DNA of 64,000 nt. It comes from an uncultured Spirochaetota bacterium. Lineage in GTDB: Bacteria > Spirochaetota > Spirochaetia > SZUA-6 > Fen-1364. The stretch covers positions 1 to 64,000 of the forward strand of contig CAVUXE010000058.1 in assembly GCA_963745235.1 (NCBI GenBank), given 5' to 3'. The first letter of the stretch is position 1, and the number at the start of each line of letters is the position of its first letter. A program made the translations under genes and the position numbers. Shown piece by piece: positions 51,261-55,519 of the stretch. Below the pieces are notes generated by a model that was given only the letters and a program-made list of their open reading frames with translations, searched no databases and was not told the DNA's origin.

Positions 51261-51875
51261 ATGCTGGTTCCTGCCGAGGTCTGGACAGTGGCGAAAGCCG
51301 AGCAGGGCAACGCGGTGCTTGTCAGACCCCTCGGTCTGGACGTCGCAGTGCCCATTTTCATAGCGCCCCTGGAGGCGCAGTCCATTCTCATCGGGCTCGG
51401 GAGCGTGAAGATGCCCCGGCCGCTCACGCATGATCTTTTCATCACGGTCCTCGAGAGCCTGGAGTCCTCCGTCAACCGCGTGGAGATTACGGCGCTCAAG
51501 GAAGGCACCTACTACGCGAAGCTGATCCTTGATTCCTCGGGGTCCGAGATCGCCGTGGATGCGCGTCCATCCGACTGCCTTGCCCTGGCGGTCCGCGTCA
51601 AGTGCCCCATCTACATCGATGAGGCCGTGGTGGACGAGGCCGGCATCTCCGTGAAGATGGTTGAAGAGAAGAACAGGGAGCTCAAGCAGGAACAGGGAGC
51701 CGGGGAAACGGCAACGGAAGAAAGCGAGACGCCCACGGTCACCGAGGTGGCACCCCTGGTGCAGGAAGACGAAATGTCGAGCCTCAGAAAGCTCCTTCAG
51801 GCGGCTATTGATGAGGAAAACTACGAGGAAGCGGCTCGCCTGAGAGACAAGATCAGGGAAATAGAAAGCGCCTGA
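51261..51875 (+). CDS. Bifunctional nuclease (DUF151) domain protein with C-terminal UVR motif
   Basis: PIFI...EAQSI, RPLTHDL, DARPSD and EENYEEAARLRDKI motifs. Promoter TTGTCA-17-TATCAT at 51209-51237. Confidence 0.88.
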   Translation: MLVPAEVWTVAKAEQGNAVLVRPLGLDVAVPIFIAPLEAQSILIGLGSVKMPRPLTHDLFITVLESLESSVNRVEITALKEGTYYAKLILDSSGSEIAVDARPSDCLALAVRVKCPIYIDEAVVDEAGISVKMVEEKNRELKQEQGAGETATEESETPTVTEVAPLVQEDEMSSLRKLLQAAIDEENYEEAARLRDKIREIESA

Positions 51876-53412
51876 GTAGCCTGTCGGACTGAGTCGGCAG
51901 CCGAAGCGGCCACCGAGCGTCCACGGCGGGGCATTTTGCGCCCGGTCGGCCCCGTTGTCCGTCGCGAGGCTGTCGGCCTCCCGCGAAAGCCTGTTGGGTG
52001 ATCTTTCCGAGCCCACTTCCTTTCCCTTCAGGCAGTCGAGAGGCTCCAGAGCCGTCTCATGTTGTACGCCAGGCAGACCAGATCCCACTCGATGCGCACC
52101 TTGGCCATGCCGCGAAGCAGAAACTGCCGCAGCCCCATCGCGCTCTTGATGATGCCGAATACCGGCTCGACGCTGGAGGCTCGCCTGCCATAGATGCGCT
52201 TGCCCTCATCAGATGTCACCTTCTCGCGCATGGCGATCAGTCGAGGATCAACGACCTTCTTGGCAGGATGGTTCTTGGGCGGCCGGTAGTCGTAGCGGCG
52301 ATAGTTGTTGTCCTCACTGCTGATCGCCACGTACAGATCCACCTTCTGCTGAACGCGCTCAATTGCCTCGGCGTTCACATAGCCCCCGTCGGCCAGCATC
52401 CCCTGCACGGGTCCGACCGACTCCACCACGTTCTGCAAGGCCACCTCCAGCTGATTCGCGTCGCTGGGGGTGGCAATGACATCGGTGGCCAGGATCAACT
52501 GGCTGCCCTCGGCGTCCACAACCGCCTGCGCGTTGTAGGCCTGTTCGTAGCTGTCGCGGCGGCTCTTGCGCATCAGGGCGCTATCGGGATCGGTGAGGTT
52601 GATCTGCTGAGAGTCCTTCGGCTGCTTCACAGGACTCTCACCCCCCGACTTCGGTCCTTGCGGTTTGTCCTTGTCGTCTTGCTTCTCACCCTCGTCCTTC
52701 GCCCGCTTCTCCAGTTCCTCGCGAGCCCAGCGCATCTTTTCCAAAAGCGCTTCGCGTCGTGCTATCTCCGGGGGGAGCTTCTGTCCATCCTCAGCAGGCT
52801 CCGCATCTGCTTTTGCCGCGCGTTGCAACAACTCCTCTATGTCCTTGCGCAATTGCTCTTCCAGTTGCCCTGCCCGATCATAGCGCACACTCTTGTGCTT
52901 GGAGGCGTTCGCTTTGATGTGCGTCCCGTCCACGCTGACCATCCCCACCTTCACCAGACCCATTTGCCGCCCCAGGCGTAGAACCTCAACAAATGCTTCC
53001 TTGACGACCTTCCCGTTCTCTCGACGAAACTCGCAGATGGTGTCGTGATCCGGATGGGTGTCCCCGCTCAGGTAGCGAACCGCTACGTCACGATAGGTCG
53101 CCCGCTCGATTCTCCGCGAGGCGAAGACTCCGTTGCAGTAGCAATAGATCAGCAACGCCAGCATCATTCGGGGTGGATATTGCTTGCTGCCGCTGCCGCG
53201 GGTGTTCACCGACATGGTGGAGAGCCTCATCGAATCCACCGCGCCGATCACGAAGTGCACCAAATCGTTCTCGGGGACCCACTGACGAAGATCCACAGGA
53301 AGGAGCATCGGCGTGTCCCGATCCACGTTCACCAGCCGCTCTGCCATGCCTTCAATTTACCATGCCCCGCGGATTTCCGGAATACCCGACGACGAAAGTC
53401 CGACAGGCTACT
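51875..53412 (-). mobile_element. IS1182-family insertion sequence
   Basis: Perfect 16-bp IR AGTAGCCTGTCGGACT (51875-51890) / AGTCCGACAGGCTACT (53397-53412). Exact termini uncertain by a few bp, possible TA duplication. Confidence 0.85.
52028..53347 (-). CDS. IS1182-family transposase
   Basis: YPPRMML, PDHDTI, VDGTHIKANAS, NLTDPDS, YNAQ, ADGGY and VEPVFG motifs. Confidence 0.92.
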   Translation of the reverse strand: MAERLVNVDRDTPMLLPVDLRQWVPENDLVHFVIGAVDSMRLSTMSVNTRGSGSKQYPPRMMLALLIYCYCNGVFASRRIERATYRDVAVRYLSGDTHPDHDTICEFRRENGKVVKEAFVEVLRLGRQMGLVKVGMVSVDGTHIKANASKHKSVRYDRAGQLEEQLRKDIEELLQRAAKADAEPAEDGQKLPPEIARREALLEKMRWAREELEKRAKDEGEKQDDKDKPQGPKSGGESPVKQPKDSQQINLTDPDSALMRKSRRDSYEQAYNAQAVVDAEGSQLILATDVIATPSDANQLEVALQNVVESVGPVQGMLADGGYVNAEAIERVQQKVDLYVAISSEDNNYRRYDYRPPKNHPAKKVVDPRLIAMREKVTSDEGKRIYGRRASSVEPVFGIIKSAMGLRQFLLRGMAKVRIEWDLVCLAYNMRRLWSLSTA

Positions 53413-53425
53413 ACTATGATGCGCG

Positions 53426-54523
53426 TCAAGCCGCCTCTTGGTTTCCCCCTTTCTTGATTTCCTTCGCATAGTCTCCGAGCTTCTTCTCATAGAGCCTCGG
53501 ATCAATCCAGCGGTATAACTCGCGAGACAAGAGCATTCGGCGCATTATGGAGAAGGTCTTGCGCAGTAGAGCGATCCGCGCGCGCCCGTACCCTTTACGG
53601 TCAACCAACTCGCGGTAGAAACGAGCCAGCACAGGAGAGGAGTCCACGAGGTGGATCACCGTCTGGGTGAAGAGGCTGCGGGTTAGTCCTCGGCTACGTC
53701 GGTTGATCGCCCCGTTGTGTGTTACCCCGCCACTGGAGCGCACTGTAGGTACCACCCCCAAGTAGGAGTGTAGCCGCCGGGCGCTCCTGAACCTTGTGAT
53801 GTCTCCCACCTCCGAGAGGAAGGCCAAGGCCAACAAAGGGGTTACTCCGCGGATGCTGATGAGCAGCTTCACTTCGGCCTCAAACGGCCTGCCTGCCTGG
53901 TAGATCGCGCGTTTGAGATTTTCCTTCTGGTCCTGCAAGCTTGCCAGAAGTGCCAGGCTGGTTTTGATGCAGACACGACTTGCCGCGGAGAGCTCTACCG
54001 TCTTCAGAAGCTCCTCTGTTCCAGTAGGATTGTCCACAAGACGGTTTCCCAGTACTCGATCCCTTATCCCGTTGTCTAATAGAACCCCGTGAATCTCGTT
54101 CTTCAATTGACGGATCTGTTTGTTCAACAACTCGTACAGTCCGAAGTACCTTCTCAACTCCCGCACCACTGGTCCCGGCTGCCACACCTCCGGCAGCTTC
54201 ATCTCTCCGCTGCGTGAGGCCAGCCACAACGCCAAGGACAGATTGGCCGCGTCCCGTTTGTCCGTCTTTTGCCAAGAGTCGCGGATGATACGGAAGCGGT
54301 AGGCGTCGATCACCGCGCAGCTCGCTCCCTGGTTCTGAATCTTCTCCGCCCAGTACAGCGCTCCGGCAGAGGCTTCCAGCACAACCGCGTCCTCGTTGCC
54401 CAGGCTCGCGACGTAGCCCTTGATATCCACCTGGGTCCGCACAAAACTCTCCTCCGTTCCTCCCTCGTCCCGTACGGAAATCGTTGCGTACTTCTTGTGC
54501 AGATCCACCCCGTAATACCTCAT
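53426..54523 (-). CDS. IS110-family DEDD recombinase/transposase
   Basis: GVDLHK, VLEAS, KTDKRDA, IGDITRF-like VGDITRF and GVVPTVRSSGG motifs. GGAGGG RBS. Confidence 0.92.
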   Translation of the reverse strand: MRYYGVDLHKKYATISVRDEGGTEESFVRTQVDIKGYVASLGNEDAVVLEASAGALYWAEKIQNQGASCAVIDAYRFRIIRDSWQKTDKRDAANLSLALWLASRSGEMKLPEVWQPGPVVRELRRYFGLYELLNKQIRQLKNEIHGVLLDNGIRDRVLGNRLVDNPTGTEELLKTVELSAASRVCIKTSLALLASLQDQKENLKRAIYQAGRPFEAEVKLLISIRGVTPLLALAFLSEVGDITRFRSARRLHSYLGVVPTVRSSGGVTHNGAINRRSRGLTRSLFTQTVIHLVDSSPVLARFYRELVDRKGYGRARIALLRKTFSIMRRMLLSRELYRWIDPRLYEKKLGDYAKEIKKGGNQEAA

Positions 54524-54564
54524 GTCCCCCTCCCTTCTCGAAACCCTCAGGGTCCAAACGAGGA

Positions 54565-54800
54565 GACTTCCTGGAAGGCGCTGGTAACTCCATCCTACTA
54601 TCCAGCATCGCCAGTGGCGTGCTATTTTGTCGGTACGGAACGGCGGTGGGTGGCCTGCCAAACTCTTAGTCGTGGTCGCCGCTCGGGTGCCACAAGCCTA
54701 TAGAAGGCCATCTACCGTCCTCCTCTTGGGTCCCGGGTCTTCGAGGAATTCAGTATACAGCCACCAACCACTTGATCATCAACGCCTTCCGGGAACTGCA
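54565..54800 (-). ncRNA. Candidate IS110 bridge/seek RNA
   Basis: Non-coding leader between the junction promoter and the recombinase, closed by a 16-bp stem (54780-54795 with 54568-54583). Boundaries approximate. Confidence 0.6.
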
Positions 54801-54819
54801 AGGCGCATCATAACAACTC

Positions 54820-55519
54820 CTAGTCCGGGCCGATGGTCGTTCCGACGTACGCTCCGCCGGTCAGTATCCGCTCGAGGTTCGCCAGGTCCCTTCCTTCCGC
54901 AAAGACCACGGGGATGCGGGATTCAGCGGCGGCGCGGGCCGCCGTGGCGTCAAACGGCGTGTTTTTCCCCGGCGTCCAATCCCCGCCGACGATCCCCAGC
55001 ATCTCTTTCCACGTCAGTCGCTCCAGCGCGCGGGCGTCCGGATCGAGTACGGGGGTCCTCGGAATAGACCATCGCGATGTTCGACAGGTTGACGACGAGC
55101 GAGGCGGAGAACCTCTGGGCAAGGACCACGGCGTCGTTGTCCGTCGAAAAACCCGGCTTCCAGCCCGCTGCAACCATCACCCTGCCGGCAAACACGGCGG
55201 CCGCCGTGGGGTCCGTGACCAGATTCTCCACGCACCAGGGGCGCAGGATGCGGCGCACCAGCTCGCCGTTCAGCCGTGTGGCGGCTATCCCCACCCAGTC
55301 CTGGTCCTCGCTGCTCGCGGCCGGAGCCACTTCACGCAGCGCTGCCTGGTATTCGCGCGCGAGGCTTCCTCCGCCGCAGACGATGATCAGCTTGCGGTCC
55401 TGGTCCCCCGCAAGGTAGCTTTCCACCAGGCGCGCAAAGCCGTCGAGGTAGGAGATGTCCAGCCCGTGCGGCGCGATGATGGATCCGCCCAGGGAAATGA
55501 CGGTGACATTCGGCATCAT
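54820..55519 (-). CDS. pyrH: UMP kinase (archaeal/spirochaetal type), frameshift near 55053
   Basis: ISLGGS, CGGGSLAREYQ, GIAATRLN, GWKPGFSTD and WTPGKNTPFD motifs. Confidence 0.88.

Follow-up and report, generated by a model that had tools for sequence, protein, structure and literature searches.

A 64,000-nt stretch of DNA from an uncultured Spirochaetota bacterium (GenBank assembly GCA_963745235.1, contig CAVUXE010000058.1, positions 1 to 64,000; hereafter 'the window', to whose full length all coordinates refer unless another contig is named) carries on its minus strand, at 54816-53413, an insertion sequence (IS) of the IS110 family. We consider it highly probable that this element is intact, probably active, and that it moves by bridge-RNA-guided recombination. 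The evidence comes from an intact recombinase gene, from an upstream non-coding leader in which short variable blocks follow both the flanking DNA and the element's own ends, and from comparison with relatives (12 GenBank contigs of metagenome-assembled genomes (MAGs), 13 of the 92 genomes of the order and 80 metagenome contigs, with 44-100% protein identity). The source MAG comprises 104 contigs and is 85.7% complete. An initial annotation of the locus had described real features and interpreted them largely correctly; what had to be revised were the core (AG), the ends (6 and 1 nt off) and the target (the tip of an IS1182-family element, not a stop codon).

By homology with IS621 and the IS1111 elements, we propose that excision as a circle would make the last bases of the right end (RE; ...CATCATAGT), a single AG and the start of the left end (LE; TTGTTATGAT...) abut, which would bring TTGACG and TATGAT to a distance of 17 bp. 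The resulting junction promoter would transcribe a structured RNA of ~230 nt and then the recombinase mRNA. In this RNA the first variable loop would read the target and the second the donor, the 5' side of the latter pairing with the first 4-5 bases of the LE and its 3' side with the last 5 bases of the RE plus AG. The DEDD/Ser recombinase would exchange strands at AG, leaving an AG on either side of the inserted element and no target duplication. The order of events written in the present locus would be an IS1182-family element placed directly after the native stop codon of pyrH, followed by the IS110-family element placed 3 bp within the IS1182 terminal repeat.

Recombinase, element ends and core

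The recombinase gene (53426-54523, minus strand; 365 aa) is intact, and its TGA stop lies inside the TTGACG hexamer of the right end. The product scored 180.6 bits against the NCBIfam model NF033542 'IS110 family RNA-guided transposase' (cut-off 140) and 64.8 bits against Pfam PF02371, and a tblastn search of plasmids returned only genes labelled 'IS110 family transposase' (an ISHvo9-family gene among them), with identities of at most 31%. A search of the PDB by single sequence gave no match at E up to 0.01, and a profile of 32 relatives retrieved IS621 (8wt6, E 3.8e-6) and ISCro4 (9t56, E 7.3e-6). In the profile alignment with 8wt6_A (numbering offset 2), D7, E50, D88, D91 and S264 were aligned to D11, E60, D102, D105 and S241 of IS621 (residue numbers and catalytic roles as given in the available part of PMC11208158), the match over the N-terminal stretch being weak (2.7 bits); all five catalytic residues are invariant in the 32 relatives. 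The AlphaFold2 model (mean pLDDT 87.2 and pTM 0.82, with the serine loop 262-277 at low confidence) found its best structural matches by Foldseek in IS621 (E 2.7e-11, TM 0.58-0.72) and ISCro4, and identity to IS621 in the structural alignment was 16-18%. The protein is thus an IS110-family recombinase of the DEDD/Ser type with a fold closest to IS621 and ISCro4, and the earlier description of an intact IS110 recombinase stands.

Read directly on the minus strand, the left side is GAC-TAG-GAGTTGT-TATGAT-GCGC (TAG at 54822-54820, TATGAT at 54812-54807) and the right side is TTGACG (53429-53424)-CGCATCA-TAG-TAG-TAG followed by CCTGTCGGACT, just as had been described. The ends of IS110-family elements are not settable from a single copy, and it was the junctions of the relatives that set the register; consequently the element proper is the 1404 bp at 53413-54816 (LE start TTGTTATGATG, RE end CATCATAGT) with AG on either flank, and the TAG on its left belongs to the target. 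A second copy (C71:4401-5824), 99.7% identical over 1427 bases, diverges from the window directly left of C-TAGGAG and shares its right side up to CCTGTCGGACT, except that it has two TAGs where the window has three. The ends previously placed at 54822 and 53414 are thereby moved by 6 and 1 nt, to 54816 and 53413. Peat unitigs reach across 53411-54823.

The two copies of the core lie at 54817-54818 (left) and 53411-53412 (right). The left assignment is based on core readouts that, among the elements with at least three of them, were concordant in 58 of 58 across both junctions and the 3' guides of the target and donor loops; across clades these 58 cores are AG (42), GG (7), AC (6) and AT (3). 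The right assignment is based on the right ends of 40+ elements, all of which read CATAGT plus core, with CATAGC in the AC-core element L092 as the sole exception. The left junctions of the relatives all have the form N-core-TT..TATGAT. In the AG-core relatives the base 5' of AG is A in 20, T in 13, G in 10 and C in 5 of 48 distinct left flanks, and the five bases preceding the core covary with the RNA; the near-identical copies present 9 distinct left junctions, all (C/A)TA(A/G)G-AG-TTGTT (CTAGG 5, CTAAG 3, ATAGG 1). Of the earlier proposal of a TAG 'or AG' core, the trinucleotide is therefore given up and the dinucleotide kept: as judged from these comparisons the core is AG rather than TAG, and the expectation of a core other than CT on the sense strand was borne out. 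The same AG occurs on either side of the element with no target duplication, as in the IS110 family. An early idea of ours, a CT core with the right end at 53397, came from the CCTGTCGGACT common to both copies after the TAGs and was dropped because CCTGTCGGACT, being the IS1182-family terminal repeat, sits at both IS1182 ends in the window and on C71.

Next to the ends lie subterminal inverted repeats, TATGATGCGC at 54803-54812 on the left (10/10 complementary to 53415-53424) and its exact 10-bp partner GCGCATCATA at 53415-53424 on the right; they are set in from the left and right ends by 4 and 2 nt, respectively, and fall within the 7-17 bp range of the IS1111 group. The combination of IS1111-style repeats with an upstream non-coding region (293 nt), which had been pointed out before, is hence real. 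The left end also holds the -10 box TATGAT (54807-54812, with TG at 54815-54814), one half of the putative junction promoter, which in 40 relatives reads TATGAT 33 times and CATGAT 7 times. The right end contributes the -35 box TTGACG (53424-53429, overlapping the TGA stop of the recombinase), which reads TTGACG in 39 and TTGACA in 1 of the 40. When the ends are joined, TTGACG and TATGAT are separated by 17 nt in the TAG and AG registers alike, with TG one base 5' of TATGAT; in the AG register the RE contributes 11 nt to the spacer, the core 2 nt and the LE 4 nt, and the spacer length is 17 in all 40 relatives having both ends. In the integrated form no sigma-70-like site was found (0 vs 0.5 expected, 53300-54900, both strands), so that the notion of a promoter arising only upon joining of the ends is supported. 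We infer circle formation, transcription, the ends of the RNA and activity.

The predicted leader RNA and its guides

The leader measures 293 nt from the LE start to the ATG, with ~13 nt after the recombinase stop codon at the other side of the element; the ~290 nt given previously were close, and the region is non-coding as stated. Among the relatives it is almost invariant apart from short blocks. The core fold of the predicted bridge RNA occupies 54568-54795 (minus strand), with a predicted start at ~54800, and is closed by a long stem, 54795-54783 / 54580-54568, that corresponds to a 16-nt repeat of 88% complementarity (54780-54795 / 54568-54583). Over 41 non-redundant leaders the fold has 51 pairs in 7 helices and 93.7% of the cells are paired, dropping to 36-57% when the partners are slid by 1-3 columns; compensatory changes were found in 25 of the 51 pairs vs 5-13 when slid, and 0 of 500 shuffles attained any of five measures. 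The 16-bp closing stem noticed earlier is helix 1 of this fold, in which 9 of 14 pairs are compensatory and 83.9% of cells are paired. Rfam 15 gave no match at E up to 10 (53000-55300). Downstream of the fold, the minimum free energy (MFE) structure contains a hairpin (54527-54566, minus strand) in which CUCCUC pairs with GGGAGG, the ribosome-binding site (RBS) of the recombinase gene; by eye, in alignment A2, CTCCTC/GGGAGG becomes CTTCCT/AGGAAG in distant relatives, which hints at a possible translational control of the recombinase.

Four short stretches of the leader appear to act as guides (all on the minus strand). In the target-binding loop, the 5' guide CTATAGG + CT (54695-54703) is complementary to the top strand of the core and right target, AG-CCTATAG, and the 3' guide ACTAAG + AG (54663-54670) equals the top strand of left target and core and would therefore pair with the bottom strand. 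The left target that it reads, CTAGG (54819-54823), overlaps the pyrH stop. In the donor-binding loop, the 5' guide GACAA, pairing with TTGTT of the LE, is followed by an AA that faces the core (54625-54631), and the 3' guide ATAGT + AG (54595-54601) equals the RE end plus core. Two short matches offered before as tentative guides fall into this scheme: 54671-54661 against 54825-54815 (10/11) is the 3' guide of the target loop, and 54601-54595, equal to 53417-53411 (7/7), is the 3' guide of the donor loop. The guides would encode a target of about CTA(A/G)G-AG-CCTATAG.

The proposed covariation of loop bases with target and donor was found on both sides. Regular expressions were used to extract guide and flank pairs from 97 table rows (those that yielded no loop or flank were excluded, and in arrays of right ends the last right end was taken for pairing). 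The target 5' guide agreed with the right flank at a mean of 4.71 of 7 positions vs 1.87 in mismatched pairings (34 unique pairs, 24 guides), and the 3' guide agreed with the left flank at a mean of 4.56 of 6 vs 1.95 (54 unique pairs, 29 guides), neither value being reached in 10000 shuffles (0/10000 each), counts that overstate significance given the kinship among the sequences. Left target positions -5 to -1 agree with the guide in 76-93% of the 54 pairs and position -6 in 13%, and a right target with a full 7/7 match to the 5' guide occurs in L010, L061, L084, L091, L092, L103 and L106 (5/7 in the C71 copy). As for the donor loop, LE bases 1-4 and the first 4 bases of its 5' guide are reverse complements of each other in 53 of the 65 elements, in 6 pair types (four mis-parsed rows were dropped), and the last two bases of its 3' guide track the core in every clade (AG, AC, AT, GG). 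With loops that covary with flanks and ends, and helices that covary among themselves, sequence comparison indicates that the upstream leader encodes a structured bridge/seek RNA of ~230 nt, as had been suspected.

Two relatives, L015 (2501-2710) and L038 (1200-1466), have frameshifted recombinase genes, and their flanks are among the worst guide fits.

The target at the pyrH locus and alternative readings

On its left side the element is preceded by the 3' end of pyrH (54820-54860, minus strand; amino-acid kinase family, Pfam AA_kinase), which encodes ...GTTIGPD and reads GGC CCG GAC TAG before continuing with GAG, TTGT and TATGAT. All 12 pyrH loci of the genus (window included) end in GP[D/E] plus stop (TAG 6, TGA 5, TAA 1). 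This comparison and the empty-site contigs confirm that the TAG at 54822-54820 is the native pyrH stop, as had been claimed; its further role as a core is the part that fails. On the right side lies an IS1182-family DDE element (51874-53410, minus strand) with a transposase gene at 53347-52028 (439 aa; NF033551, 338.8 bits, cut-off 270). Its terminal repeats, CCTGTCGGACT, are at 53407-53397 and 51880-51890, and they recur at 2868 and 4411 of C71, where a second, 94.8% identical IS1182-family copy lies (C71:2868-4411). The window copy has GAG-TAG-CCTG at both ends and the C71 copy GAG-CCTG, the extra TAG of the window (53408-53410) standing between core and repeat. Candidates for the IS1182 target duplication are AG, AGG or CTAG. 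Further IS1182 tips (TAGGAG-CCTNTCGG) were seen on C70 and C84.

Beyond the far IS1182 end, native DNA 3' of pyrH resumes at 51844-51873 (minus strand), where AGG at 51873-51871 repeats AGG at 54821-54819. The empty site is found in peat contigs (X9, X10) that link 54819 straight to the 51873-51844 sequence; the same two runs also hold other flanks after CTAGG and a junction of the C71 type. The orthologous locus L049 reads GGACCGGACTAGGCGCTTTCGATTTCCC, and the nearest pyrH orthologue continues as TAGGCGCTTTCGATTTCCC, the matching sequence of the window (AGGCGCTTTCTATTTCCC) being met only past the far IS1182 end. The native site is thus GGACTAGG followed by CGCTTTC, with CG at the core position, no AG and no right-hand target. 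Because CG stands there in place of the core AG, we conclude that the IS1182-family element arrived first and created the target. Its free tip is present on C71 as GGACTAGG-AG-CCTGTCGGACT (CTAGG-AG-CCTGTCGGACT), and both IS110-family copies adjoin an IS1182 tip, at opposite ends of that IS. The real target is therefore the outer tip of an IS1182-family element together with its flank: the insertion lies 3 bp inside the terminal repeat, G 54819 and the left AG core are at the same time the outermost GAG of the IS1182 inverted repeat, and part of the left target is supplied by the flank. The proposal that the element targets stop codons is not supported by these data, since the AG core and the right target come from the IS1182 tip and the native site has no AG at that place; it is the position of the insertion site, downstream of the stop, that lets pyrH retain it, and not a role of the stop as core. 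For annotation this is a trap, the apparent 'stop-codon core' being a by-product of one IS nested in the tip of another.

The extra TAG may have been present in the IS1182 repeat before the IS110-family element arrived, in which case the insertion may have been half-matched; this is possible because the far end of the same IS1182 copy also has GAG-TAG-CCTG. Alternatively, the two AGs that stand 3 bases apart in the right end could have allowed recombination in a slipped register. Such TAG slips do occur, because the relative L074 (~990-1000) has an extra TAG between core and left end (AGT-AG-TAG-TTGTT), mirroring the right junction of the window.

Within pyrH, a frame change was noted at 55040-55060 (minus strand) in a run of five C (...GAGGACCCCCGTACTCG..., orthologue ...DPRTHPDARALE), which may be a homopolymer assembly error rather than the mark of a pseudogene; the pyrH of the closest relative is also frame-changed, at another place.

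A number of observations weigh against an intact, RNA-guided element, in addition to the kinship among the sequences mentioned above. Pfam PF01548 scored 24.9 bits, under its cut-off of 29, and the single-sequence fold energy of the leader is unexceptional (z = -1.66). At its core positions the donor 5' guide carries AA in the window, and just 15 of 65 elements have bases there that are complementary to the core; in IS621 all four guides include the core, according to the available part of PMC11208160. Under a fixed rule the right flank of the window after AG, TAGCCTG, fits the guide at 1 of 7 positions, and it becomes CCTGTCG with 5/7 only when the third TAG is taken as slipped element DNA; other right flanks fit poorly too (2/7 in L015 and 1/7 in L108, L014/L071, L038 and L102), some of them fitting after a 1-nt shift. 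Run data consisted of assembled Logan contigs of X9 and X10 (DNA) and X19 and X20 (RNA libraries). No circle junction was seen in the contigs of these four runs, which show junctions poorly, and no RNA end was seen in them either, contigs being ill-suited to show ends. Those of the RNA libraries cover only 54400-54632 and 53410-53556, a sign of presence in the library and not of transcription.

Part of these points would also be expected if the window copy were stranded or defective, that is, if it had arrived by a half-matched or slipped event and could no longer excise itself or insert. The right target at 1/7 under the fixed rule, the extra TAG, the donor 5' guide not complementary to the core and the missing circle in the run contigs all agree with such a history, and a half match is reported to suffice for recombination (available text of preprint 10.64898/2026.08.31.748434). 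Against it, the reading frame is intact and the protein is 100% identical to that of a metagenome contig (L060), the second copy differs by only 0.3%, and in G060 the left end of this element occurs five times, each time at the end of a contig. Furthermore, the non-complementary core positions are the rule of the family (50 of 65), and excision needs the donor arms only, according to the same source. We accordingly regard a defective copy as improbable and return to an element that is intact and probably active.

Still less probable, in our estimation, is the arrangement first proposed for this locus, in which a TAG core would bound an element at 54819-53417 between two TAGs and the pyrH stop would be targeted so that the essential gene is spared. 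It draws on true observations: a TAG stands on either side in the window, on C71 and in L010, the TAG register likewise gives the 17-bp spacer, and the left TAG is indeed the pyrH stop. It nevertheless makes GAG part of the element, when the bases that precede AG in fact vary with the RNA guide, and the base directly before AG takes all four identities in the 48 flanks. Three of the nine near-identical left junctions have CTAAG, not CTAGG, the tandem right ends on C30 are joined after GAAG and GGAG, not TAG, the C71 copy sits at an IS1182 end, not at the pyrH stop, and the native site offers no right-hand target.

Least credible of all is a leader that would be a mere 5' untranslated region controlling translation of the recombinase, with the protein itself choosing the target, for although the ribosome-binding site is sequestered in a hairpin, the fold energy of the single sequence is nothing unusual, no Rfam family matches and no RNA was seen in the run contigs, two short variable blocks in an otherwise near-invariant leader track the flanking DNA on both sides and the core changes in step at four places, a pattern that is the published signature of bridge and seek RNAs (PMC11208160 and PMC11187229, as far as their available text goes).

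Relatives, known systems and implications

Besides the second copy, the same MAG contains an 83% relative on C30, plus fragments. A short right end like that of the present element is present in 33 of 44 relatives and in all core clades. An opposite polarity, in which the window type would have lost by deletion a ~230-nt 3' non-coding region between two right-end motifs, was considered and reversed: the long 3' form is the derived one, because the short form is so widespread. The long form was observed in a sub-clade (L011, L012, L014, L015, L067, L076, L083, L084) with ~230-330 nt of extra non-coding DNA that is conserved within the sub-clade; this stretch is bounded on its inner side by a right-end motif that has decayed, at the stop codon, and on its outer side by a new right end, and its similarity to the rest of the element is confined to the end motif. 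Two or three right ends in tandem (units of 24-85 bp) were met in L003 (4204-4354, equal to C30:9397-9547), L013, L011 (3850-3907) and L060, and the joints of the repeats on C30 immediately follow GAAG and GGAG in the DNA upstream, as recombination at AG would leave them. Between the recombinase gene and the true right ends, L003 (3100-4165; C30) and L013 have an ankyrin-repeat gene of ~350 codons, which looks like cargo inside the element. An isolated right-end-like stretch plus core (…GCGCATCATAGTAG) followed by GAG…, in TAG-rich palindromic surroundings, lies at C35:105059-105080 and is possibly a remnant or a miniature derivative. Finally, three window-type copies of one MAG (L019, L020 and L021, bases 100-140) adjoin the same repeat (CC[C/T]..TAGGGCGATGGCACGTCTGAC), which probably represents the tip of a further repeated element serving as target.

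Cargo growth, tandem duplications of ends and recombination at half matches are treated in two preprints (10.64898/2026.08.14.744561 and 10.64898/2026.08.31.748434), the available parts of which cover right-end arrays and ankyrin-gene cargo such as met here. Taken together, the published bridge RNAs (with the recombinase of IS621; PMC11208160 and PMC11208158, in part) and the seekRNAs of the IS1111-group elements ISEc11, ISKpn4, ISPa11 and ISPst6 (PMC11187229, in part) would, in our analysis, account for every part of the present element.

IS621 shares with it the DEDD RuvC-like domain, the coiled coil and the Tnp domain with catalytic serine (it is the best structural match), an RNA upstream of the gene in the left end as in the narrow IS110 group, a junction promoter (predicted here), target and donor loops, and a 2-nt core on both sides. 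It differs in protein sequence (only 16-18% identical, as given above), in its CT core as opposed to AG on the sense strand here, and in repeats of 2-3 bp, which the narrow IS110 group has at that length or lacks altogether, as opposed to a 10-bp subterminal repeat. In IS621 (and likewise in ISEc21, and as the rule in the narrow IS110 group) the 5' side of the loop pairs with the bottom strand, whereas here it pairs with the top strand; the guides here are 7+2 and 5+2, and in the donor 5' guide the positions facing the core mostly do not pair.

The IS1111 group resembles the present element in its subterminal repeats (7-17 bp there), its junction promoter (predicted in ours) and its lack of target duplication, and also in having the top-strand match 5' of the bottom-strand match in the RNA (PMC11187229, available part). 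It is unlike it in that the non-coding region and the RNA lie downstream of the gene, and here upstream; its proteins are described as having 330-350 aa and the motif GL-P----S(t)G, compared with 365 aa and GV-P----SG (G256-V-V-P259-TVRS-S264-G265) in our element. An upstream position is reported for ISMtsp17, an IS1111 relative with a long upstream non-coding region, and non-coding regions on both sides are listed for ISHvo10 and ISAcp5, the RNAs of all three being uncharacterised in the available text of PMC11187229. We liken ISMtsp17 to the present element, and ISHvo10 and ISAcp5 to the sub-clade with the added 3' stretch, by description only; searched by name, ISMtsp17 appeared in the literature only in PMC11187229, in two versions.

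Specific targets inside other mobile elements have precedents in IS4321 and IS5075, which target the terminal repeats of the Tn21 family (from a title cited in PMC11208160), and in ISEc21, which targets transposase genes of the IS3 family (PMC11187229, available part). The host in the present case is different, being an IS1182-family IS with the site 3 bp within its terminal repeat.

The element is a clear new example of a known RNA-guided mechanism, with a modest chance of representing a distinct sub-branch. We would only tentatively, and with somewhat less than even confidence, see in it a separate, uncharacterised IS110-family branch, with members in MAGs of Spirochaetota and in peat, soil and sediment metagenome contigs, in which an IS1111-type RNA lies upstream under the junction promoter and the donor 5' guide is normally unpaired with the core. 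Were this true, the order of the guides would not be tied to which end carries the RNA, and the core positions left unpaired may be a sign that strand exchange is ordered or controlled differently. The branch would also offer a test bed for programmable recombination, with at least 29 left guides, at least 24 right guides and 4 cores on a near-invariant scaffold. For genome engineering, it adds a recombinase distant from IS621 in sequence, with another core and another guide geometry.

What the locus provides is a cleanly delimited and apparently active bridge recombinase of an uncultured spirochaete, for which a second copy and an empty site are available, along with dozens of relatives reprogrammed in nature. 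Its guide rules can be deduced from the sequences by themselves (guides of 5+2 and 7+2 nt, a core of AG, AC, AT or GG, IS1111 polarity and an upstream RNA). As no Rfam model detects this RNA, elements of such kind stay unannotated. With regard to the biology of the family, the findings mostly bear out the publications of 2024-2026 on a mechanism that was first described in 2024.

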